A stretch of 64,000 bases of DNA from a virus: positions 4,812-68,811 of IMG/VR virus record IMGVR_UViG_3300045988_090117; one strand, 5' to 3'. Shown one piece after another: positions 1,742 through 59,272 of the stretch. The position numbers and the translations under genes are program-made. The notes under the pieces were generated by a model that had not been told where the DNA came from, made no database searches, and saw nothing but the letters and a program-made list of their open reading frames with translations. Numbering within the stretch: position 1 is the first letter of the stretch; each line of letters opens with the position of its first letter.

Positions 1742-4700
1742 TTATTCACAAGTTGTTACTATACACTCTTTACTAAGTATTATAGTATATCCATCTTTAT
1801 TTTGAATTGATTCCTTAACTTCGTTTAACCCATCTATTGTTGCATAGGTATCACTAACAGTCATTTTGAATCCGTCTAAGGATTGTTCTAATTTTGCCTG
1901 TTTACTAGTTACTACTTTTACTTGTTCTGCCACTTGTTCTAGTGTTGGTGTTGTATAAGTAGTTGATGTAGGATTTTGCCATACTAATTTATATCTTAGC
2001 CATAAGTATTTATTTTCTGTTACAGCAGGCATACTCTCAACCCAACTACCTCCAGTTTGTGTTGTGTTACTAGTAGATAAATACCATTGTGGAGTTGAGT
2101 TCGTTAATGATTGTCCCTTATCACCAGGTTTACCATTATCACCTTTAAACTTACTCCATATGTAGTCAGCCTTGTTGTTACTTTCAGTAGCAGTCGTTTT
2201 GTTAGGAGCAATACCAATATACATTGTGCTATCTTTTGGAGTATCGTATAAACCAGTTCCATCAGCATTATCACTATATTTTATCCATGTATAATGAGTG
2301 ACCCCATCTTCACCTTTGATACCTTGTACGCCTTGATCCCCTTTATCTCCTTTTATCAAACTCCATACGTAGTCGGAAGGTTTATCACTTTCAGTTTGTG
2401 TAGTTTTGTTATAAGCAAGTCCAATATAAGTTTTTCCTGTTGGGTCATTACTAATACCTTCACCAGTTACACTATCAGCATATTTTATCCAAGTATAGTA
2501 GGTCTTACCATCTTCACCTTTAATTCCTTGTTCACCTTTAAATTTGCTCCATGTGTAATCAGTCTTGTTGTTGCTCTCAGTAGGTGTTGTTTTATTAACA
2601 CCAATTCCGATATATTTTGTTGTATCTTTTGGAGTATCATATAATCCTGTACCATCGGCATTATCACTGTATTTAATCCAAGTATAGTAAGTAGTACCGT
2701 CAGCACCAGTATCACCTTTTATACCAGTATCACCTTTCTCACCTTTTATTAGACTCCATGTATAATCAGTTTTATTAGTGCTTTCATTTTGTGTTTCTTT
2801 GTTATAGGCAAGACCAATATAAGGTTTACCAGTTGGATCATCGCTAATACCAGTTCCGTCAATACTATCTGCGTATTTTATCCATGTATAATATGTTTTA
2901 CCATCTTTTCCGGGAACACCTTGTAAACCTTGTTCACCTTTATCACCCTTAAACTTACTCCATATATAGTCAGCTTTGTTGGTGCTTTCAGTAGATGTTG
3001 GTTTATTTGGAGCGATCCCAATATACATTGTACTGGCTTTTGGTGTATCATATAGTCCTGTGCCATCTGAATTATCGCTGTATTTTATCCAAGTATAATA
3101 AGTTTTACCATCTTCACCTTTAACCCCCTGTACTCCGGTGTCTCCTTTTTCCCCTTTTATTAAGCTCCATGTGTAATCAGAAGGTGTATTACTTTCGGTA
3201 GATGTTTCTTTGTTGTAAGCAAAACCTATATAAATTTTACCAGTTGGATCATTACTAATTCCACTACCATCTATAGTGTCAGCATATCTAATCCATGTGT
3301 AATAAGTTTTACCGTCTGTTCCTGGTGTTCCTGGAACACCTTGTAGACCTTGGTCACCCTTATCACCTTTTGCTCCTTGCTCACCTTTTATCTTACTCCA
3401 TGTGTACGTAGTAACAGACTCACTATCTTTATTGTTTGTATCAGTATAAACTCCTATATAAGCTCCAGGAGTTTCACCTTTATTGACTGTAAAAGTTTTA
3501 CCTCCATCATCACTATATTTTATGTGTAGATAATAAGTTTTACCGTCTGTACCATTAGTTCCAGGTATACCTTGTTCACCTTGTTGACCTTCAAATCTAC
3601 TCCATGTATAAGCTTTATAATCAGTGCTATCAGTTGGATTATAATCAACATATGTACCTATATAAGTACTTGGAGTTTCACTCATTGGATTACCATTCGC
3701 ATTGGCACTATATTTTATATGAAAATATGTTGTCTTACCGTCTTTACCTGGTGTTCCTGGTGCTCCATCTTTACCAGGTGTACCATCTTTTCCTGGTGTA
3801 CCTGGTGTTCCAGGGATACCTTGCTCACCTTGCTCACCTTGTAAACCTTGTAGTCCTTGTGGACCCTGTTCACCTTGTGGACCTTGTGGCCCTTGAATAC
3901 CTTGCTCACCTTGTGGTCCTTGAATACCTTGTGAGCCTTGTTCACCTTTATCTCCTTTATCTCCCTTAGCACCTTGAATACATACTGGTGTTGAGTATGT
4001 TACACTACCATCACCTTGAGTGTATTTTATTCTTTGCCATATATATTTTCCACTTTCCCATTCAGGAGTAGTTTCTATCCAACTACCTCCAGTTTGAGTA
4101 GTATTACTTGTAGATACATAGTACTGAGATACAGTCTTTGTCAATGTTCCGTTAAAACTAGTTTCTAATTTTCCTATTGCAGTTGTATGTTTATTTACAG
4201 TATCTACAGTGCTATTATATTCATCTTTTAGTTGAGTAACAGTACCATCTGTTTTAGTGATAGTTGTATTACTAATTAATTGACTAATTTGACCTTGTGC
4301 TATACCTATATTAGTTGTATTGGTAGAGACCTGCTCAATAACACTACTTAAATCTCCGCCAATAGTTACATCTTTTATAGTTTCAACTGTCTTTTTAAGC
4401 TGATTGAATGATACATCTAATGTTTGATCAGTATCATTAAATTTTATTTGACTTGCTTTTATAGTATTAGTGTTATTATTGATACTACTGATAACACTAC
4501 TAATATCTAATTTACTACCACTTATATTGGCATTATCTGCTACTTTGCTATCAACTATTAATCCATCTTTTATCGCATCACTTGATTGAATACCATTCTG
4601 ATTAATAAGTTGACCTTTACCAGTTTCATCATATAATACAAAAGTAAAATTACCTTTAGCATCTTTTCCTATTTGAATACGTACATTACCTTTGCTATCT

Positions 4701-43144: not shown

Positions 43145-43984
43145 TTAAAATAATTTTTTCTGTTTCTTAGATGTGTTATTTTCCACGATTACTTTATCAT
43201 CCACATCATTCAATTTGTTATTTCCTATTCTATTGCTAGCTATGTTGAAATATTTTTCATCTTTTTCAATCCCGATGAAATCTCTATTAATATTTAAACA
43301 AGCAACGCCAGTTGAACCACTACCCATTGTAAAATCCAATACTAGTTCACCTTCTCTGGTATATGTTTTTATGAGATATTCAAGTAGTGCTACTGGTTTT
43401 TGTGTTGGATGTACTCTTTTAGAATTAGCGCACTCTGTTGCTTGTGTGGAAATATTTATGATGTTTTTAGGATAACGTTCAGTTCCTTTTTTATTTTTTT
43501 CCGTTTTATAAAATTCTTCACTTTTTATTCCACTGAACAAATCAGTTTGTTTAATGGTTGGTTTCTCCTTAGTCAAATCTCTTTTGTTGTCTACAGTAAG
43601 TATAGGATAATAGTTTACTCGTTCCCCATTTCCAGTAAAAACTAATATTTCTTCCTCTACCTTAAGGGGTTGATATTTTGCGACTAATATATTTCCTGCA
43701 CTACTTTTATTCCATATCCATTGGTGTTTAAAATGTTTTATATTACTATAAATCAAACTTGTTGTAAAAGGCTGTGAGCCAAATAATATTATACCTCCAT
43801 TAGGTTTTATTAATTTGTTTAAGCTGCACCACATTTCATCTAAGGGTATAATAGAATCCCATTTGCAGCTAGTAGTGCCATATGGTGGGTCGGTTATTAT
43901 GGCATCTACCTTTACTCCAGCTGCAATTAATTTGTCCATAATTTCCAGACAATCCCCATTGTATAATTTATAACTCACATACAT
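43145..43984 (-). CDS. Beta-class DNA methyltransferase (N6A/N4C, DPPY), paralogue 1
   Basis: DAIITDPPYGTT near the N-terminus, and HPTQKPVALLEYLIK, DFTMGSGSTGVAC near the C-terminus. The track start (TTG at 44011) is probably too long; an ATG at 43984 follows the SD AAAGGAGGG. Confidence 0.8.
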   Translation of the reverse strand: MYVSYKLYNGDCLEIMDKLIAAGVKVDAIITDPPYGTTSCKWDSIIPLDEMWCSLNKLIKPNGGIILFGSQPFTTSLIYSNIKHFKHQWIWNKSSAGNILVAKYQPLKVEEEILVFTGNGERVNYYPILTVDNKRDLTKEKPTIKQTDLFSGIKSEEFYKTEKNKKGTERYPKNIINISTQATECANSKRVHPTQKPVALLEYLIKTYTREGELVLDFTMGSGSTGVACLNINRDFIGIEKDEKYFNIASNRIGNNKLNDVDDKVIVENNTSKKQKKLF

Positions 43985-44015
43985 CCCTCCTTTATTTTTT
44001 CTTCCATACAATTAT

Positions 44016-44060: not shown

Positions 44061-44768
44061 TTATATTTCTATTCCTTCTCCATACCATCTATATGTACAT
44101 TCTATATCAGTCTTCATTGGTATTTCAAATTTTCCGTCTACTACGTGTACCATAATGTACTCTAATATATCTCTCACCTCTTTGGCATTCTCTTTTGGAC
44201 ATACTCCCAATACTTCATCATGCACCGGTATGATTAATTTATATCCCAACTCTTGTAGTCTTTTATTGTCATGAATTCTTATCATTGCTATCTTTGTCAT
44301 GTCGGCTGCACTACCTTGAATTATACTGTTAACACATTGTCTTTGAGCGTCGGCTATATATCCACCATTATCCACTAATTTATATCCCTCATCCTTGGCC
44401 ATTTGTTTTATTTTTTCTTTTGCCTCCTTACCAAAGGCTCTATTCATTAATTTAAGATATTTGAAGTAAACCTCATCGCTCACCTCTGTAGTGGACCCAC
44501 CAGTAAAATCTAATGGATTAAAGGTATCAGCTAAATTAGGGTTTTCCACTGTTATCTCTATTGGATCTAGTTGCATATTTGGTAATCTTCTTTTTCTACC
44601 CCATGCAGTCTCTACAAAACCATACTCTCTTGCATTCTCTTGAGCAAATTCTACAAACTCTTTTACTCTTGGAAATTGTTTATAAAAGTCATTTATAACC
44701 TGTTGTGCTTCCTCTTTACTGATATTCATCTGCTCGGCTATACTTGTTACACCTCTACCATACATAAT
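44061..44768 (-). CDS. polA: Family A DNA polymerase, exon 3
   Basis: Begins IMYGRGVTSIAEQ (completing motif B, K..LLGIMYG) and contains VHDEV (motif C). The junction follows the intron-terminal G at 44769. Confidence 0.8.
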   Translation of the reverse strand: MMYGRGVTSIAEQMNISKEEAQQVINDFYKQFPRVKEFVEFAQENAREYGFVETAWGRKRRLPNMQLDPIEITVENPNLADTFNPLDFTGGSTTEVSDEVYFKYLKLMNRAFGKEAKEKIKQMAKDEGYKLVDNGGYIADAQRQCVNSIIQGSAADMTKIAMIRIHDNKRLQELGYKLIIPVHDEVLGVCPKENAKEVRDILEYIMVHVVDGKFEIPMKTDIECTYRWYGEGIEI

Positions 44769-45823
44769 CAGTTTATACCGCCCCTTTCGGGGTACTTTAA
44801 CACTTGTTATGCCAAGTCGGCTTAGACTATATCATCCCTCTTACGAGGGGAGCGCTTCGTATATCGTACCAATAGATACACTACTCCATAAAGGATAGTC
44901 GTTACACTTCTTCCCAATGGTAGCCGTATGCTCTTATATTTCTTTTCATACTCTCTTTTATTTGAGTATTACAACTTTGTGACGTTTTAGTTTTACATAA
45001 ACCTTGTGCAACTAACCATTTCCATGCCTCAGTATAACTACTAAATGTTTTATCAAGTTCTATAAGTTTTACCGGTTTACGACATTTACTTATTCTACCA
45101 GTATTACATTTACTTATAATATCTTTTGTTTCTTGTGTATGGTGTTTACCATAAAATGCATTATCTTTACCAGTATATTTACCTTGTCTAGCTTTACTTA
45201 GCGCTAATTTATGTTCCGGTGATTTTGCTACTCCTTTTAACTTAGATGCTCTTTGTTGTATGAAAAGTTGTCTATCAGTATCAGATAATGTACTCCAAAA
45301 TTGTCTACTGGCTTGAGACATTTTTAGTTTATCTTCATCCGTATGTTTATAACCAGGTACGCCAGCTCCACCTGGAGTCATATTATAACCATCTTTATAA
45401 CTATTAAATATTGATATATAATATACTTCTCTCTCATTTAATTTGTCTATTGAGCATTCCTCTAATAAATACATATGAAATTTATCAACACCATATTTAA
45501 GTAGTGCATTATGAAAATGTGTACCGTTATTTATATCAGAACTAGTATGTTCATACCATCTTTGTTTTAATGATGTACTTGTTTGTCCTACATATACTTT
45601 ATGATTAATATCGTCAATTACAATATAAATATATCCCATAATCTCACCCCCTTCACGGCTATCATTGTTGGTTAGCACGGTCTAACCATATGAGATATAA
45701 AATTATATTGGTTTATATATAATATTATAGCACACTTAGGCTTTAACCGTTAGCATAAAATAAAAAATTTTATACACCCCTGGTAGGGTTCACTTTCTTT
45801 TATTTGGGCTATACTTGTGGTTT
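44769..45823 (-). mobile_element. Group I intron 2 of polA (1055 nt) carrying a GIY-YIG endonuclease ORF
   Basis: The upstream exon ends in U (GGT at 45826-45824) and the intron ends in G (44769). GC-rich structured ends include a CCCCGAAAGGGG tetraloop hairpin and GATATAGTCTAAGCC, which resembles the group I S element. Confidence 0.75.
44902..45639 (-). CDS. GIY-YIG homing endonuclease (intron-encoded)
   Basis: MGYIYIVIDDINHKVYVGQT...N..Y gives a GIY-YIG core. NUMOD-like repeats (HK.ALSKA.QGK) follow. SD GAAGGGGGTGAG upstream. Confidence 0.8.
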   Translation of the reverse strand: MGYIYIVIDDINHKVYVGQTSTSLKQRWYEHTSSDINNGTHFHNALLKYGVDKFHMYLLEECSIDKLNEREVYYISIFNSYKDGYNMTPGGAGVPGYKHTDEDKLKMSQASRQFWSTLSDTDRQLFIQQRASKLKGVAKSPEHKLALSKARQGKYTGKDNAFYGKHHTQETKDIISKCNTGRISKCRKPVKLIELDKTFSSYTEAWKWLVAQGLCKTKTSQSCNTQIKESMKRNIRAYGYHWEEV

Positions 45824-46153
45824 ACCCAATAATATAGGCTTAACGGAGCTTCTACGTTGTTTTCCTTCTGGGTTAACTGTACCGTCAGGTCTAAACTCCT
45901 TACATTCTTCATATGGTTGATTGTACAATTTACTTGCTATCGTGGCATATAGGTCCTTTCCATCTAAATACGCTTGTATCATATGTTTATCGCCACTCAT
46001 ATGTGCTAAACATCTCGGCTCCTGCTGCGAAAAATCTCCACCTATTATTACATTGCCTTCTCCTGCAATAAACATTTGTCTTATATCATGTCCAGCATCT
46101 ATTACAGTCCCATCACTTAATTTCTTTGTTTTACTGGGTATATTTTGTAAATT
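45824..46153 (-). CDS. polA: Family A DNA polymerase, exon 2
   Basis: NLQNIPSK...GGDFSQQEPRCLAH (motif A, DYSQIELR-like) ...QRRSSVKPILLG. 330 nt, in frame with exons 1 and 3. Confidence 0.8.
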
Positions 46154-46882
46154 CACATTGTTAGCGTAGAGGCTCTTTATCCTCTACCTCTTATGGTTCG
46201 TATTCCCATAAGGTCAGACTATATCTCAAACTTATAAAAAGCGACCTGTCTCTTTATCTCGACGATTATTTAAATCGGTACTATGATATTTTTCTTGATG
46301 TTCTGCACGTGTAGTCAAAACTAAATTTTCTATTCGATTATCCAACTTATTCCCATTCTTATGGTGAACTATCTCATCCGATGTTAACTTACGTCCTAAA
46401 TAATCTTCCATAACTTTACGATGTACAAAATATCTATTATTCAACTCTGAAACAACTAAATAACCATCGTATAAATAAACACGTGGTTTTCGTCCTTCTC
46501 CACGTCTTTTAAGTTGTAATCGACTAGCTTTATGCAGAATACTACCCTCACTGCGATTTAAATATTCACTACATTGTTTAAGTCCTAATTTCTCATAATT
46601 TTTAACAAGCCATTCTAATTCCGTTTTTGTCCATTGTTTTCTCATATACATTACCTCCTCCATTTACATAATAGTAACATATATGGAATATTTTGTAAAC
46701 ACTTTTTATAAGTCCAGGGGCGCTCGTGGATGGGTTATTGGTGTGCTCCTCACCATCTAGTCGTTAGACTTTCACGGTACATTTTTACACTTCCCGTGCT
46801 TAGTACGGTATTAGCATCGCAGCCTTCACCGTTTCACCCCTGTATGCATCTATCATATCACTATGATAGCGCCCAATTATTT
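46154..46882 (-). mobile_element. Group I intron 1 of polA (729 nt) carrying an HNH endonuclease ORF
   Basis: Exon 1 ends ..AAT CCT (U at 46883) and the intron ends GTG (G at 46154). A GC-rich core at 46664-46882 and GATATAGTCTGACC near the 3' end resemble the group I S element. Confidence 0.75.
46232..46663 (-). CDS. HNH homing endonuclease (intron-encoded)
   Basis: [34 protein letters not shown]. The probable start MRKQW at 46645 follows the SD GGAGGAGG. Confidence 0.8.
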
Positions 46883-48199
46883 AGGATTACTACTACTAAA
46901 ACGTCCTGTCTTTGCGCCATACTGGTTGAAGTTCGCGTGTAACTTACCAGTTCTTTTGCTTATATGGTCAGGAATGGCATCAATATAAGTACTTAATAGT
47001 TTACTCATACCTCTATACTCTAATATACTATTCACTAATGGGTGGTTTAATTGTTTCAGTTGTTCTTCTCCCACGCTACGTTGACCTTTTGGTGGCTCTA
47101 ATTTTAAGACATCATAGAATAATATTACTAACTGTTGATTACTTCCTATATTAATTTTCACATCTCCAAATTCACTTATTTTGCCATACTTGTCTGGATG
47201 CTTAACTCGTAGGTCATTAAATGCGCCCTGCTTATCCAGCTTCTCTACTTCGGTATTAAATTCATTAAGAGCATTATCCATATACGTAGTATATCGTTGT
47301 TTTAACTCTTGAGCTAAGTTTGTATCTATATCTACTCCTTGTGCCTCCATATCGAATACTACTTCTATTAATGGCATTTCTATATTCCTGAATACATCTG
47401 CCACCCTTTCAAGTCCTTTTTTATAACAGTATTTTCCATCTCTGTCCAAATACTCACGTTGAAATTCATATAATTCAAAAGTCATTATAGGGTCAAAGGC
47501 TGCGTACATATAGCCAACATCTGGAGGTATTTTATTGAACTCAATGCCATTAAATAATTCACCAAATTTACCTACCTCAGCACTTTCACCAGTACAATAC
47601 TTTTGCCATAATACTTTTAAGCCATGTGGTTCATTTTCATTAAGTAAATACCCTCCAATTAATGTGTCCCAGTATGGTACTATTTTTACTCCTACCATCC
47701 AATATAATATATGCATATCGAACTTAGCGTTATGTAGCACAAATCTAATATTATTATCTGACCAAGATTGTATTAATTTCCTAACTACTTCAATAGATAC
47801 ATTACTTTGTAATTCCGTATTTGTCATATAACTTATATGTCCTACTGGAATATAAATACCTTTTTCATATGGTGTATAAAGACATATACCAGCTACTTTT
47901 CCGTCTATTCTATCAAGTCCGTTTGTCTCAGTATCTAGTGCTACTATGCCATTGGCTACTACTTTTTTATCGAACTGTTTTAACCTATCTTCACTAGTTA
48001 CTAATTCCATTCTATCTAGTCTATCAGCAAATATTTTAGTAGACATCATCTTTGCATATTCTACTTTATCCTTCATTGTCTTAGGTACTATTGATGTTAC
48101 TGGCGCTCTTTTATTTTTCTTTTTACTCAACACTTCTAACGCTTTTTTATTCGCCTCTTTGTTATTACAACGACTAAATGTATCTTTAAACAAACTCAT
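46883..48199 (-). CDS. polA: Family A DNA polymerase, exon 1 (3'-5' exonuclease domain plus N-terminal polymerase domain)
   Basis: Exo motifs VALDTETNGLD and LHNAKFDMHIL. Ends ..GAKTGRFSSSNP, which continues as NLQNIP in exon 2. Confidence 0.85.
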
Positions 48200-51414: not shown

Positions 51415-51453
51415 ACAACTGCCTCCTTTATATTTATAAGTCTTACTATATAT

Positions 51454-51482
51454 AGTATAGTAAGACTTTATTTTTTACTAAC
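51454..51482 (-). promoter_or_regulatory. Phage promoter motif GTTAGT-17-TATACT (upstream of nrdJ)
   Basis: Minus strand reads GTTAGTAAAAAATAAAGTCTTACTATACT. The -10 is embedded in a 13-bp perfect inverted repeat (51438-51468). Confidence 0.55.
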
Positions 51483-53310: not shown

Positions 53311-53467
53311 ATTATCCCTCCTGTATTTTATATAATAAATCAAATAGTGGGTCTAGGTGCTCAAATACTAAATCACCTTCATCCACTGCTTTATTTATCA
53401 GCCATTTTAATTCTCGTACTAAATCTTTTTCTATTTCCATTTCTCTTATTTTTCTACCAGTTAACAT
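53300..53467 (-). CDS. Small hypothetical protein (55 aa), not in the ORF track
   Basis: My translation is MLTGRKIREMEIEKDLVRELKWLINKAVDEGDLVFEHLDPLFVYYIKYRRDNYEM; SD AAAGGAG upstream. Confidence 0.4.
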
Positions 53468-53488
53468 ATAATCAACTCCTTTAAATAT

Positions 53489-53517
53489 ATTATATTAAAT
53501 TTATTAAAATTACTAAC
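53489..53517 (-). promoter_or_regulatory. Phage promoter motif GTTAGT-17-TATAAT
   Basis: Minus strand reads GTTAGTAATTTTAATAAATTTAATATAAT. Confidence 0.5.
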
Positions 53518-53526
53518 TAACAAATT

Positions 53527-53625
53527 AAAAAAATAAAAACCCCTGACACTGTCCGCTCCAATGCCAGGGTAAAAAAAGGGGAGTTATATTATGAGTAGAA
53601 GAATGTGCCTCCACATTTCCTCTAC
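53527..53625 (-). ncRNA. Candidate small RNA A (~97 nt): promoter motif, 5' hairpin, AUAUAACUCCCC, terminator
   Basis: Starts ~7 nt after the TATACT at 53637-53632. 5' hairpin is GUAGAGGAAAUGUG-GAGG-CACAUUCUUCUAC. Terminator is CCCUGGCA..UGUCAGGG plus U5AU7; it contains a G-U pair, which on the plus strand would be an A-C mismatch. No ORF with usable SD spacing. Confidence 0.4.
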
Positions 53626-53631
53626 ATATAT

Positions 53632-53660
53632 AGTATAGAAAAAAATGCCATTTTACTAAC
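53632..53660 (-). promoter_or_regulatory. Phage promoter motif GTTAGT-17-TATACT (drives candidate sRNA A)
   Basis: Minus strand reads GTTAGTAAAATGGCATTTTTTTCTATACT. Confidence 0.55.
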
Positions 53661-54955
53661 TAAAAAACATCAGTAACATCAATTATTTTATTATTATTTC
53701 TAAGTGGTAATTGTGGCTCAATCTCAGCTCCATCTTCCAATTGTTCAGTCACAAATGAGAAAATACCGTTGTCTATGTCCCACACATATAATAATTGCTT
53801 ATTATTTTCTCCATATCTATTCTTAGTTATTTTAAGACTCAATCCCGCTTTAGTCTGCACAAGAGATATAACCCTACTACTATTCTGAGCAATACCATCA
53901 CTCTCACCTATATCTGCTAGTTCGGGATTCTCAGGTTTGTCGATATCAGCTTTATTTCTATTTGCTTGTGCATCTACTATAATTGGGATGCTGAATTCTA
54001 TACTGATATTAAATAAATCTTGAGCAATATGTGTGTACTGAGTTCTTGTTTGGTCTCCCTTTCCTCGTCTCTCATCTTCCATTAATGATATTTGGTCTAT
54101 GCCAACTATGTCTGGTTTATACTCTTTTATAAGTGCTCTTAGTTTACTAACTGTTAACATTTTACCTCCAAAGTCTACTGGTGTTACTACTATATATGGA
54201 GGTAATTCTTTATTAGTTTCCAGATCATTAATGTATTGCTTATAATCTCCATCTGCTATTGTACCTCTCATTAATTGAGAGTTTGTGTAGTTCATACCTA
54301 ATGTATCATTTCTATATGCCACTTGTAATACACCCATCTCACCACTGTAATGGAGTACTTTTTTATATTGTCTATTTGCCTCTGTTAGAAACTTTTGTAA
54401 CAGCCAAGATTTACCTTGGTTTACTCTACCAACTATAGTTACTAGTTCTTCACCTGGTAGCCATCCATTAAGTATCTTGTCTAATTCAGGTAAGCCACTA
54501 CCAATTCCTAACATACCACCTTTAGCACGTTTATTCTCTAAGTCCTTTATTTTCTCATCAACCATATTGTTAATATTTACTCCATTACTCTGAACAGTTT
54601 GGTCAAGTAAACGTTGTGCCCTTGTGACTATATGTTGTAAGCCATCAAAAGCATTCTGTTCTAATACATCACCACTAGCTTGAAATAGTGCCACTCCTTG
54701 GTCAAATAGATAGTTTTCTTTTAGATTATAGATAATATATTTTAGTGGCTCTAATACTTCAACAACATCAAAGTCAGGAAATTTTCCCATGAATGTTTCC
54801 CAGTCAGGTACTTTTCCATAAGTTCTAAAGTGAGTACATATAAAATCAAACTCATCTTGATAGTCTTTAAAATACTCTTTTGTTATCCCTTGACTCGTAT
54901 ACGCATCTAAATTATTATTATTTAATATATCATTAATTGCTTGTAGTTGTACCAT
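53660..54955 (-). CDS. dnaB: Replicative DNA helicase (DnaB family)
   Basis: GIGSGLPELDKILNGWLPGEELVTIVGRVNQGKSWLL (Walker A), DIVGIDQISLM and QANR motifs. Confidence 0.85.
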   Translation of the reverse strand: MVQLQAINDILNNNNLDAYTSQGITKEYFKDYQDEFDFICTHFRTYGKVPDWETFMGKFPDFDVVEVLEPLKYIIYNLKENYLFDQGVALFQASGDVLEQNAFDGLQHIVTRAQRLLDQTVQSNGVNINNMVDEKIKDLENKRAKGGMLGIGSGLPELDKILNGWLPGEELVTIVGRVNQGKSWLLQKFLTEANRQYKKVLHYSGEMGVLQVAYRNDTLGMNYTNSQLMRGTIADGDYKQYINDLETNKELPPYIVVTPVDFGGKMLTVSKLRALIKEYKPDIVGIDQISLMEDERRGKGDQTRTQYTHIAQDLFNISIEFSIPIIVDAQANRNKADIDKPENPELADIGESDGIAQNSSRVISLVQTKAGLSLKITKNRYGENNKQLLYVWDIDNGIFSFVTEQLEDGAEIEPQLPLRNNNKIIDVTDVF

Positions 54956-55668
54956 TATATTCTCACCCCTTTTGGTTTCCTTTGTGGCTTGTTAATAAAT
55001 TCTACTATTGTACTTGTATCTAATATTCTACTCGCCAACCTACCACCAATATTATCATCTAACTGTTCATCAATAACATTACTAGTAAATATATTAGCTT
55101 TATTATTTACTATACGTGGGTTAATAAGACTAAATAATATTTGGTGGTCATATTCTTTTAACTTAGTTACTCCTATGTCGTCCCAAATTACAAGATCTAC
55201 TGTTGGTATTAATTTTTCCATTTCTTCTAGTCTCAAGTCAGGTCGTTTTATGGCATTTCTTTTAGCCATTAAGAACTCATCTACATTGATGAATAGACCT
55301 CTACAACGTGTGCCATTGCCATTCCAAATATTACTAAAATATTTACTCATTAACTTTATTGCCCACGTAGTTTTACCATTACCAAAATATGGGCTATATA
55401 AATATAAGTTACATCCATCTTGTACAAATTCATTGATATTATTCTTTACACCATTAAGATACTCGTACTTTTTAAGATCATCACCCGCACTCAACTTCAA
55501 GTCCTCAGGTTGCTGCTTATTCGGTGGAATATTTGCCAAGTTAACCAAATAATAATATTGAAAATATACACTACAACTACAATTGCAGTCCTTTGTATTA
55601 TACATAGGACAGTTAGTCCTAAACCAACATTTATCTTTATTAAATTTAAATTCTTTTACATCATACAT
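54955..55668 (-). CDS. DnaC/IstB-like AAA+ helicase loader with a Cys-rich N-terminus
   Basis: LYLYSPYFGNGKTTWAI (Walker A), LVIWDDIG (Walker B), and N-terminal CWFRTNCP..CNCSC. Confidence 0.6.
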   Translation of the reverse strand: MYDVKEFKFNKDKCWFRTNCPMYNTKDCNCSCSVYFQYYYLVNLANIPPNKQQPEDLKLSAGDDLKKYEYLNGVKNNINEFVQDGCNLYLYSPYFGNGKTTWAIKLMSKYFSNIWNGNGTRCRGLFINVDEFLMAKRNAIKRPDLRLEEMEKLIPTVDLVIWDDIGVTKLKEYDHQILFSLINPRIVNNKANIFTSNVIDEQLDDNIGGRLASRILDTSTIVEFINKPQRKPKGVRI

Positions 55669-55691
55669 ACTAAAAACCTCCCTTTATTTAT

Positions 55692-55720
55692 AGTATAGTA
55701 AAAAATCTACTTTTACTAAC
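55692..55720 (-). promoter_or_regulatory. Phage promoter motif GTTAGT-17-TATACT
   Basis: Minus strand reads GTTAGTAAAAGTAGATTTTTTACTATACT. Confidence 0.55.
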
Positions 55721-55723
55721 AAG

Positions 55724-55821
55724 AAAAAACCCCCGATACCAAAGGGGGGGGGTAGATATCGGGGTAAAAAATAAATATTAAGGGGTTATATATGTAAGGG
55801 GCTGAATACCATATTCCTTAC
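55724..55821 (-). ncRNA. Candidate small RNA B (~98 nt), paralogue of A
   Basis: Starts after the TATACT at 55833-55828. 5' hairpin is GUAAGG..CCUUAC, followed by AUAUAACCCCUU. Terminator is CCCCGAUAUC-(loop containing C9)-GGUAUCGGGG plus U6. The U-G wobble is only possible in the minus-strand RNA. Confidence 0.4.
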
Positions 55822-55827
55822 ATATAT

Positions 55828-55856
55828 AGTATAGAAAAAATCCCCATTTTGCTAAC
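55828..55856 (-). promoter_or_regulatory. Phage promoter motif GTTAGC-17-TATACT (drives candidate sRNA B)
   Basis: Minus strand reads GTTAGCAAAATGGGGATTTTTTCTATACT. Confidence 0.55.
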
Positions 55857-55858
55857 TA

Positions 55859-56614
55859 CTAAAATAATTTTCTTTGTCTACTAATCGTCTCTAATCTATC
55901 TTTAGTTATATTAAAATATTTTTTATCTAACTCAATTCCGATAAACCTTCTATTTAAATTCAAACAAGCCACTCCGGTACTACCTGAACCCATTGTAAAG
56001 TCAAGAATTACATCACCTTCATTTGTATATGTTTTAACTAAATATTCAAGCAATGCGACTGGCTTTTGTGTTGGATGATATCTATTTTTAACATCTCTAT
56101 TAAATTTAATAATTGAAACAGGGTATCTTTTGCCATCATTCTTAGATATATAGCCATCAATCGTCCCTACGCCTCTATATACACCACGCACACGAGGTCT
56201 TTTTACTACATATGGTTCCCCCTCTGTAAATTGTGGATTATATGTGGGTAACTTTTTATAAAACACCAATATATTCTCATGTTTCTTTAGTGGCATTCTT
56301 TTAGCATTAAGCCCACCTGTTCCCTGTTCTTTTTCCCATATCCATTCATATCTAAGCATCTCTAAATTACTAACTCCAAGAACTTTATCAAATGGAGTTT
56401 GAGCAAATAAACATATAACTGCATTATCTTTTATTAATTTATTTAGTCTCTCCCACATACCATCTAATGGGATTATTGAATCCCATTTACAGGCAGTTGT
56501 CCCGTATGGGGGATCTGTAATTATAGCATCGACTTTTACACCCCCCTTAATCAACTTATCCATTATTTCCAGGCAATCACCATTATATAATTTATAGTTT
56601 TCATTATTATTCAT
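55859..56614 (-). CDS. Beta-class DNA methyltransferase (DPPY), paralogue 2
   Basis: DAIITDPPYGTTACKWDSIIPLD, HPTQKPVALLEYLVK and DFTMGSGSTGVAC. The ends are near-identical to 43145..43984 while the central ~100 aa differ. Confidence 0.8.
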   Translation of the reverse strand: MNNNENYKLYNGDCLEIMDKLIKGGVKVDAIITDPPYGTTACKWDSIIPLDGMWERLNKLIKDNAVICLFAQTPFDKVLGVSNLEMLRYEWIWEKEQGTGGLNAKRMPLKKHENILVFYKKLPTYNPQFTEGEPYVVKRPRVRGVYRGVGTIDGYISKNDGKRYPVSIIKFNRDVKNRYHPTQKPVALLEYLVKTYTNEGDVILDFTMGSGSTGVACLNLNRRFIGIELDKKYFNITKDRLETISRQRKLF

Positions 56615-57812: not shown

Positions 57813-58508
57813 CTAAAATAATTTTTTCTGTCTATTATTCAACTTAACATTTTCAAGTCGTTCTTTAGATATATTAAAGTAATTTTCATTTAATTCAATT
57901 CCTATGAATCTTCTATTAGTATTTAAACAAGCAACACCTGTGCTGCCACTACCCATAAATGAGTCTAAAATTAAGTCATTTTCATTTGTTGATTGTTTTA
58001 TAAAGATCTCTAATAAATCAACAGGTTTTTGTGTTGGATGCAATTTATTTCCAGTTCTTTTAGCTTGTATGACATCTGGTAATCTTTTACCGTTTCTTAA
58101 TCTTCGTCCTTTATGTCCAAATAATATAAATTCATGCTTAGGGGCATATGATCCCTTTAAATCGCCCATAGATATATTATTCTTTTCCCATACTATTATA
58201 TTTTTTAATGTGAAGTATTTTTCAAATGCAATTTTAAATTTATCTATATGATGCCAACTACAAAAGCAATATATATGAGTATTATCTTTTAACAATTTAT
58301 CACATTTTTGAAAATATTCATCTAAAAATGATAAATCATCATCATTACTAATTTGCTTATATTTTTCTTTTCTACGATTACTTTTAAACTCCATACCATA
58401 GGGTGGATCGGATATTACTGCATCCACTTTTACTCCATCTTTAATTAATTTATCCATAATTTCTAAGCAGTCACCTTGATATAATTTATACCTTTCATTA
58501 TTATTCAT
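57813..58508 (-). CDS. Beta-class DNA methyltransferase (DPPY), paralogue 3
   Basis: DAVISDPPYGMEF, HPTQKPVDLLEIFIK and DSFMGSGSTGVAC. Confidence 0.8.
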   Translation of the reverse strand: MNNNERYKLYQGDCLEIMDKLIKDGVKVDAVISDPPYGMEFKSNRRKEKYKQISNDDDLSFLDEYFQKCDKLLKDNTHIYCFCSWHHIDKFKIAFEKYFTLKNIIVWEKNNISMGDLKGSYAPKHEFILFGHKGRRLRNGKRLPDVIQAKRTGNKLHPTQKPVDLLEIFIKQSTNENDLILDSFMGSGSTGVACLNTNRRFIGIELNENYFNISKERLENVKLNNRQKKLF

Positions 58509-59160: not shown

Positions 59161-59189
59161 AATATAGGAAAAATCGCCGTTTTACTAAC
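59161..59189 (-). promoter_or_regulatory. Phage promoter motif GTTAGT-17-TATATT
   Basis: Minus strand reads GTTAGTAAAACGGCGATTTTTCCTATATT. Confidence 0.5.
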
Positions 59190-59243
59190 TACAAATTTAA
59201 AAAAGTTAAAAAAATTTTCACCTTAAAAAAGGTTTTTTTATAT

Positions 59244-59272
59244 AGTATAGAAATTTTTCCCGTTTTACTAAC
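59244..59272 (-). promoter_or_regulatory. Phage promoter motif GTTAGT-17-TATACT
   Basis: Minus strand reads GTTAGTAAAACGGGAAAAATTTCTATACT; in tandem with the copy 83 nt downstream. Confidence 0.5.

Follow-up and report, generated by a model that had tools for sequence, protein, structure and literature searches.

We describe here unit A, a small-RNA-like locus in a 64,000-nt (64-kb) stretch of phage DNA, positions 4,812 to 68,811 of the IMG/VR record IMGVR_UViG_3300045988_090117; this whole stretch is called the window, and its coordinates are used throughout. The window has a G+C content of ~32%, its long open reading frames (ORFs) all lie on the minus strand and its gene content is that of a tailed phage, the source being an uncultured phage of the human gut. 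Unit A sits between the helicase and primase genes and, judged by its sequence, is a conserved gene for a self-contained non-coding RNA (RNA A) with a predicted promoter and terminator.

Upstream of unit A lies dnaB (53660-54955, minus strand; DnaB_C helicase in Pfam), itself preceded by an IstB/DnaC-like helicase-loader gene. We re-derived the elements of unit A, all on the minus strand, and found the promoter (53632-53660), hairpin, single-stranded linker, terminator and following promoter (53489-53517) at the coordinates given in a first-pass annotation of the same DNA. The first promoter, P1 (GTTAGTAAAATGGCATTTTTTTCTATACT, that is, GTTAGTAAA-N14-TATACT; 53660-53632), is a predicted promoter that matches the phage promoter consensus in full, and its first G is the final base of the dnaB stop codon (53660). 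It is followed by the spacer ATATAT (53631-53626) and by a 5' hairpin, GUAGAGGAAAUGUG-GAGG-CACAUUCUUCUAC (53625-53595), found in both the minimum-free-energy (MFE) and the centroid fold. Because the gene promoters of this phage have very short leaders, the inferred transcription start of RNA A is placed ~7 nt past the -10 element, at the hairpin's first G (53625, +/-2 nt), where its 13 pairs open. The adjoining 25-nt linker, UCAUAAUAUAACUCCCCUUUUUUUA (53594-53570), is unpaired in the predicted fold and forms a putative seed, in which CAUAAUAU is followed by a C-run and a U-run (CUCCCCUUUUUUU). The C-run (53581-53578, within CUCCCC at 53583-53578) has a predicted probability of being unpaired of 0.99. 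A terminator scan identifies the stem-loop CCCUGGCAUUG-GAGCGGA-CAGUGUCAGGG (53569-53541), with 11 pairs, 6 of them G-C, and a 7-nt loop (GAGCGGA), and next to it the U tract GUUUUUAUUUUUUU (U5AU7; 53540-53527). After a gap of 9 nt (53526-53518) comes a second copy of the promoter motif, P2 (53517-53489, minus strand), the promoter of the small-ORF/primase operon. The next gene is a 51-codon ORF (ATG at 53467, with a Shine-Dalgarno (SD) sequence upstream of it), and downstream of unit A two small ORFs are followed by a Toprim primase gene (Pfam).

RNA A, at 99-100 nt, folds with -34.6 kcal/mol (z = -4.3), and 0/200 shuffled sequences fold equally well; a folding check had been suggested in the first-pass annotation. 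The terminator (53569-53527) is the only one after the dnaB stop codon and is common to the loader-dnaB operon and RNA A. Since P1 opens at the stop codon and no terminator lies earlier, the sequence of RNA A is also the 3' end of the loader-dnaB messenger RNA (mRNA). The annotation had further called the terminator strand-specific, and indeed two positions in its stem are G-U pairs that become mismatches on the opposite strand.

The promoter assignment draws on motif enrichment, strand bias and retention in relatives. The motif GTTAGYAAA-N14-TAYAMT occurs 21 times in the window with at most one mismatch, against 6.6 +/- 2.3 expected, and 0/100 shuffles reach 21. All 17 good copies are on the minus (coding) strand and precede either a gene whose leader is very short or an sRNA-like (small-RNA-like) unit; in total the motif stands before about 15 genes. 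P1 is retained after the dnaB stop codon in all relatives, as GTTAGTAAA, GTTAACAAA or GTAAACA variants. In distant relatives the upstream block is GTTAACAAA (TTAACA), near the sigma-A -35 element, and because of this resemblance we consider that the host polymerase probably reads the phage promoter. P2 is found in 9/11 lineages; it is missing in L098 and degenerate in L108. At 51438-51482, the promoter before the ribonucleotide reductase (RNR) gene overlaps an inverted repeat, AAGTCTTACTATAT / ATATAGTAAGACTT, with 14-bp arms and a 3-nt loop, which covers the -10 element and start site; its GTCTTAC arm is kept in relatives, and the repeat may be a repressor operator.

Conservation of unit A was assessed in a close and a distant set of relatives. 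An IMG/VR search by DnaB gave 17 close relatives with a DnaB identity of 94-98%, on contigs of 41-72 kb. Unit A follows the dnaB stop codon in 17/17 of them, and a promoter-pair scan finds a second such unit, unit B, in 16/17. Across the 18 sequences, mean pairwise identity is 0.863 in the 5' hairpin, 0.878 in the linker and 0.903 in the terminator, compared with 0.755 at dnaB third codon positions. Unit A is thus under purifying selection, given that its identity exceeds that of dnaB synonymous sites. A 15-nt linker core, CAUAAUAUAACUCCC, is invariant in the 18 sequences, six of which carry a 1-nt insertion immediately 5' of it. The hairpin shows G-C/G-U swaps and one compensatory ATTGTG/CACAAT variant, and in the terminator 110/110 stem cells are paired in 10 variants, pair 6 being G-U, A-U or G-C. 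For unit A alone the covariation shuffle control is modest (23-40 of 500).

The distant set consists of graded DnaB homologs, from 78% to 50% identity, on human-gut metagenome contigs (L097-L111). The unit A slot is occupied in 10 distant gut-phage lineages (L097-L110; DnaB identity 78-55%), and down to 55% identity the layout is always a promoter directly past the dnaB stop codon, a short RNA and a strong terminator. The terminator stems of these lineages are unrelated in sequence and occupy the same position. An unpaired core of the form CAUAAUAU..CCCCUUU is the one block still recognisable, down to 60% DnaB identity; it reads UCAUAAUAUAAUACAAUCCCCUUUUAUAAU in L097, UCAUAAAACCCCCUUUUUUAAU in L098, GAACCCCUUUUCUUUUU in L099, CCAUAAAUUAUCCCCUUAAAUCC in L100, UCAUAAUAAAUCCCCUUUAUAAU in L102, UCAUAAUAUACCCCCUUUAAUAAU in L108, AAAAUCCCCCUUUAAAUUUU in L109 and CCAUAAUAUUAUUCCCUUUAAUAAU in L110. 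Unit A is missing in L111 (50% DnaB identity), in which the primase gene abuts dnaB, and in the cultured phages phiCTP1 and Flasso, despite a common loader-dnaB-primase order. A single DnaB variant accounts for 146 indexed blocks of the collection, and the phage clade carrying this sRNA family is common in human gut metagenomes.

In L105, 1538-2680 and 2670-3200 hold an IS605-type OrfB/Cas12f-like TnpB gene and then three short direct repeats, ATATTTCAATTAAACAAGGATTAAAAC; the insertion site precedes the loader gene and is the slot elsewhere occupied by Bro-N genes. In L097 (78% identity) an HNH/NUMOD4 endonuclease ORF (3609-4022) separates the loader gene from dnaB, whose start it overlaps.

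No conserved ORF is present on either strand of unit A in the window and its relatives, in agreement with the annotation, which had seen no usable ORF. The sense ORF MWRHILLLII (10 codons) lies inside the hairpin and starts 1 nt past a GAGGA. We rejected it as a peptide: its frame is shifted by the 1-nt insertion in six relatives (L002, L003, L004, L007, L016 and L017), and its ATG is ATT in L011 and L015. A gene on the opposite strand, where a good SD and an ATG mirror the seed, was likewise rejected; the ORFs there have 15, 2, 9, 15, 12, 3 and 8 codons among lineages, that of unit B has 1 codon, and the window has no gene on that strand. A pseudoknot between the C-run and a GGAGG hairpin loop was discarded as well, the loop being GGCGG in many relatives and so not conserved.

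Database searches place unit A outside described families. At gathering scores Rfam reports no family in the window, and no cis-regulatory Rfam family matches unit A. The annotation had drawn a likeness to RsaE; read as homology it does not hold, as there is no Rfam RsaE match in 53400-56000 even at E up to 10, the sole weak Rsa-type match being unit B to RsaOG (E = 3.9). A blastn search of the locus against 50,697 phage records gave no match, and a metagenome pattern scan for transcript-like fragments returned only full phage genomes (genomic contigs). As to the host, a DnaB search in reference genomes gave only a 39% match, in a metagenome-assembled genome, an endolysin search gave only weak matches to Bacteroidales phages, and no transfer RNAs were found as a clue.

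Unit A has counterparts in the same genome. Searching the window for promoter pairs 50-260 nt apart yielded four promoter-insert-promoter arrangements (A, B, C and D), all on the minus strand. The RNA of unit B (55821-55724; P1 55856-55828, P2 55720-55692) has a DNA methylase gene on one side and the helicase-loader gene on the other. It shares the plan of unit A: a hairpin, GUAAGG...CCUUAC, at +1, an unpaired AACCCCUUAAU / CAUAUAUAACCCCUUAAUAUUU and a terminator with the loop CUACCCCCCCCCUUUGG. The annotation had referred to a locus B, and a covariance model built from unit A only scores 32.8 bits (E ~5e-4 to 8e-4) along the entire length of unit B, both in the window and in each of the close relatives. 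By this sequence and structure match, units A and B are true paralogs. The unit B fold has z = -5.3 with its C-runs unpaired in the prediction, pairing is complete (100% of stem cells) across 13 variants, which include C-G/U-A (5 sequences) and G-C/A-U double changes, and its covariation score is reached by 0/500 shuffles.

Unit C encodes a longer RNA (~177 nt; 57775-57599; P1 57810-57782, P2 57588-57560) between another methylase gene and an AntA-like gene. Its 5' half is very AT-rich, with ATTATTTT repeats, and contains an SD-like AGGUGAU without an ORF. Immediately before the terminator AAUCCCCAUAU is unpaired (C-run probability 1.00), and the terminator stem varies in a compensatory manner among relatives (CCAGTGG/CCACTGG, CCAACGG/CCGTTGG and CCGGTGG/CCACCGG). 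Unit C shares the design of units A and B, so that this phage has at least three similar units; an extra unit of this kind, with AAUCUCCCC(C)UUUAUU and a terminator, lies beside Bro-N genes in L104 and L106, and the family has two to four copies per genome. The fourth arrangement, unit D (59161-59272), consists of two full-consensus promoters 83 nt apart (73-84 nt in relatives). What separates the two (59272 to 59189) is a trivial A/U-rich spacer of 44-55 nt, with at most a weak ACCUU/AAGGU hairpin and no evident RNA product. The window also holds three separate N6/N4 DNA methyltransferase genes (43145-44011, 55859-56614 and 57813-58508), two of which directly precede an sRNA-like unit (B and C).

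The feature that recurs in these RNAs is an exposed C-run. Folding of 18 homologs of units A and B gave z values from -3.3 to -6.8 throughout; most of these RNAs have a 5' hairpin, and in 17/18 the linker, a hairpin loop or a terminator loop presents C-runs of at least 3 whose probability of being unpaired is 0.88-1.0. The exception is the unit B homolog of L110, in which CUCCUUUU replaces the C-run. The sense strand of the window is only 12.3% C, and 6/23 of the runs of four or more C in the 64 kb fall within the ~370 nt of units A, B and C. Several homologs contain CUCCUUU, the core of the 16S anti-SD. A CAU lies 4-13 nt upstream of the C-run in 7/9 unit A lineages with a recognisable core (7-9 nt in this phage), and the reverse complement of the linker resembles a full ribosome-binding region: AAAGGGG, an AU-rich spacer and AUG. 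The CAU conserved at this spacing suggests that the linker mirrors SD, spacer and AUG jointly. The apical loop of the terminator, GAGCGG/GAACGG, is kept in the window, L109 and L108, although their stems differ.

Three of the other five runs of four or more C outside called genes belong to two probable introns, in their non-coding cores. The gene they interrupt, for a family-A DNA polymerase, is in three minus-strand pieces (46877-48199, 45809-46156 and 44061-44765) that match consecutive parts of the Pfam profile, and the insertions hold an HNH_3 homing endonuclease ORF (46232-46663) and a GIY-YIG plus NUMOD3 ORF (44902-45678), with GC-richer non-coding flanks. The two insertions are probably group I introns; Rfam reports no intron model at 44061-48199.

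By analogy with RsaE, RNAIII and SprX, we propose pairing with G-rich start regions, and we lean slightly towards RNA A being a stable sRNA that base-pairs with G-rich SD sites and thereby blocks the initiation of translation. P1 would transcribe a ~99-nt RNA from the dnaB stop codon to the terminator of the loader-dnaB operon, the hairpins at its 5' end and terminator would protect it, and the 25-nt unpaired linker between them would present the C-run and U-run. The linker could then pair with the SD-to-start-codon region of one or more mRNAs with a G-run SD and block 30S binding. Units B and C would be further members of the same design. Within the phage the best candidate target is dnaB, the second cistron of the loader-dnaB mRNA, whose repression would make helicase synthesis subject to feedback; targets in the host are just as possible.

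The candidate target site is the dnaB translation initiation region, CCAAAAGGGGUGAGAAUAUAAUGG (54975-54952, minus strand), which falls within the 3' end of the loader gene. Most lineages have a G-run (AAAAGGGG, AAAGGGGG) as the dnaB SD, as distinct from the GGAGG of most genes; a run of four G is found at only ~8/80 start sites of the window, and the gene after the primase (~200 aa, 52080-51478) has a conserved GGGGG SD. The dnaB start is among the top four predicted partners of the seed in 7/11 loci. In one clade (L011-L013/L015) the dnaB SD is (A/G)AGAGAGG (AAGAGAGG) in place of AAAAGGGG, and the seed is CUCCCUUUCUUUUUU (CCCUUUCUU), so that the natural seed/SD combinations are CCCCUUUU/AAAAGGGG and CCCUUUCUU/AAGAGAGG. 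Both keep a 19-bp interrupted duplex from SD to AUG, with cognate energies of -15.6 and -16.3 kcal/mol against -13.6 to -13.8 and -10.5 kcal/mol when swapped. Swapping between the clades shows a cognate gain of 7.6 kcal/mol for dnaB and at most 1.7 for 21 other start sites. These matching changes in modelled duplexes point to dnaB in a suggestive manner only, and we regard the dnaB start as a possible but rather doubtful target of the unit A seed.

A number of results weigh against pairing in general and dnaB in particular. What we observe is how unit A is built, that it is conserved, non-coding and has a paralog, and that its C-run is accessible in predicted folds; the transcription, stability, pairing and target identity of RNA A are what we infer. 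The annotation had suggested that the C-rich tract pairs with SD regions; the unpaired tract does survive divergence and fits the signature of a known sRNA class, but target prediction over 80 phage start sites is no better than with shuffled seeds, the minimum duplex energy being reached by 22/100 shuffles and the mean by 7/100. Cognate and non-cognate combinations of seed and dnaB start do not separate across 12 lineages (p = 0.24). In the same comparison the loader gives p = 0.08, the primase 0.16, the gene at 52080-51478 0.39 and RNR 0.46, and the gene just downstream of unit A reaches a nominal p = 0.019 that fails correction for six tests. The covariation of seed and dnaB SD is a single evolutionary event, L014 and L118 combine the derived seed with the ancestral dnaB SD, L115 has a dnaB SD change without compensation, and the dnaB SD of L098, L106 and L108 is of the GGAGG or GGCGG type. 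The swap test for unit B gave no consistent target, with scattered gains of 4.5-6.5 kcal/mol on unrelated genes. In the distant relatives L102, L104 and L106 the unit B slot keeps the order promoter, short RNA, terminator and promoter but has no C-run, so there the layout is better conserved than the motif. Finally, terminator A must be read through in L098, which has no P2.

This last lineage, overlooked in the first-pass annotation, bears on the most serious rival, in which unit A is a cis-acting leader or attenuator that gates transcription from P1 and the upstream operon into the primase operon, the short RNA being a by-product. Read-through of the terminator would depend on some condition or on a phage antiterminator, and in the read-through transcripts the linker would pair with the start of the next gene and silence it. 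In L098 the downstream genes lack a promoter of their own between terminator A and the next gene, so unit A there doubles as a leader that needs read-through; the degenerate P2 of L108 likewise leaves the primase operon to be fed by read-through. The start just downstream is also the only one of six to favour its cognate linker, at the uncorrected p value given above, and the hairpin lies directly at the transcription start, as it does in put and nut elements. Against this, a full-consensus P2 follows the terminator in 9/11 lineages, and likewise units B and C, which makes attenuation largely redundant. No alternative fold rivals the terminator, which the MFE and centroid folds both keep with the linker unpaired at a probability of 0.99, and pairing between the linker and the downstream start is weak in the window (-11.0 kcal/mol). 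We consider a mainly cis-acting leader unlikely, and such a function is in any case compatible with an sRNA role. If RNA A instead served to sponge up or decoy an RNA-binding protein of host or phage or a defence system, through the C-run/U-run and the GAGCGG loop, this would fit the lack of a convincing mRNA target in the duplex, cognate and swap tests, the several copies per genome with repeated C-rich loops and the apical loop kept over differing stems. A U-rich tract before the terminator together with a poly-U tail is also the usual Hfq-binding module. No candidate protein came to light, the motif closely resembles the anti-SD-like seeds of known pairing sRNAs, and the CAU at a start-codon-like distance from the C-run suits pairing better than protein binding, which makes a decoy quite improbable.

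Two further explanations were considered. The short transcripts beside loader-dnaB could form R-loops or primers of a replication origin, as at T7/T4 origins, given that units A and B flank the loader-helicase operon with the primase gene adjacent and that unit C includes a long stretch rich in AT, with ATTATTTT repeats. The transcripts, however, stop at strong terminators and do not enter an unwinding element, units of the same type adjoin methylase, antirepressor and Bro-N genes, iterons are absent from unit A, and its G-U pairs show selection on the RNA strand; an origin function is therefore the least probable of these explanations, and we give it very little credence. The RNA could also be functionless, with the terminator ending the loader-dnaB operon, terminator and P2 forming a PeSL-like boundary, P1 being a passenger duplicate and the repeated promoters serving recombination and module shuffling. 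Such boundaries have a precedent in PeSL cassettes (PMC4122927), tandem promoters with nearly nothing between them do occur (unit D), and gene content between promoter copies varies among relatives. This is hard to reconcile with a P1 directly past the dnaB stop codon in every lineage down to 55% DnaB identity and with a linker core that is invariant against ~75% identity at synonymous sites. The P1/P2 direct repeats should favour loss of a useless insert, yet the insert persists, and the enrichment and constant unpaired position of the C-run would be left unexplained. We judge a functionless RNA very unlikely.

Taken together, a base-pairing sRNA is the reading we prefer, and a more specific and speculative version, which we put forward as an unlikely idea, is that these are multi-copy 'start-site mirror' sRNAs. 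In such RNAs CAU-(4-13 nt)-CCCCUUU would mimic the initiator anticodon and the 16S anti-SD and silence mRNAs with a G-run SD (GGGG, not GGAGG). Unit A would then autoregulate the helicase-to-loader ratio at the dnaB start, in cis or in trans, and its paralogs would act on other G-run-SD genes of phage or host.

The sRNA family is new and absent from Rfam, although its kind is known: C-rich and of the SD-targeting type, phage-borne and partly embedded in a 3' untranslated region (UTR). Nearly all phage sRNAs published so far belong to prophages of enterobacteria or Staphylococcus, and a review of them holds nothing like unit A, its sole Gram-positive entry being SprY of an S. aureus prophage (PMC12197685). 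Regulatory RNAs of phages of Gram-positive gut bacteria are almost unknown, and the unit A family, which is well delimited, offers a concrete and testable case of RNA-level control within a phage replication module. It would mean that lytic-type phages have adopted the C-rich anti-SD-type seed design of Bacillales, and its conserved promoter, terminator and sRNA parts could serve the engineering of phages of low-GC Firmicutes.

The closest known systems are the UCCC-motif sRNAs RsaA/C/D/E/G/H and RNAIII of S. aureus (RsaE being RoxS in Bacillus), a class whose members have a hairpin at the 5' end, a terminator and an unpaired UCCC where conservation is highest (Geissmann et al. 2009, PMC2790875). 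Experiments with RsaE demonstrated that it pairs with the SD and that the initiation complex is lost (PMC2790875); for unit A, such blocking of the SD is proposed. Unit A has the same 5' hairpin, Rho-independent terminator and unpaired UCCC in its most conserved region, and shares with the class the UCCC(C) form of the motif, a size of ~100 nt and, as is often the case, several copies of C-rich loops. It has no sequence or structure homology to these RNAs, comes from uncultured lytic-type gut phages and not from a bacterial chromosome, and its seed adds the conserved CAUAAUAU, which mirrors the start region beyond the SD. SprX (RsaOR), carried by converting phages of S. aureus, selectively blocks the ribosome-binding site of spoVG, the second cistron of yabJ-spoVG, with a C-rich loop (PMC4005690). 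It is phage-encoded too, and its second-cistron logic matches the action proposed on dnaB in the loader-dnaB mRNA, but SprX belongs to temperate phages, targets a host gene and has no sequence relation to unit A, whose weakly supported candidate target is the phage's own helicase. PreS/LPR1 of phage lambda, a trans-acting sRNA of ~88 nt that activates translation of host dnaN in an Hfq-dependent manner (bioRxiv 10.1101/2024.10.31.621285; PMC12197685), is likewise a phage sRNA tied to the replication machinery, from a Gram-negative system and with no common sequence or architecture. PeSL cassettes of T4-type phages, in which a terminator stem-loop and then a conserved early promoter are repeated in the genome at module boundaries (PMC4122927), resemble unit A in having a terminator directly before a promoter. 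Unlike unit A, they lack a promoter upstream of the terminator and a conserved structured RNA with an exposed motif. In gene organization, unit A resembles the 3'-UTR-derived sRNAs with their own promoter, such as the Hfq-dependent DapZ and MicL of enterobacteria, which have a promoter at the end of the upstream ORF and a terminator in common with the upstream mRNA. With such a shared terminator the RNA A sequence, like DapZ and MicL, would occur in two forms, within a 3' UTR and as a separate sRNA, the difference being that the predicted unit A promoter opens exactly at the stop codon and not within the ORF.

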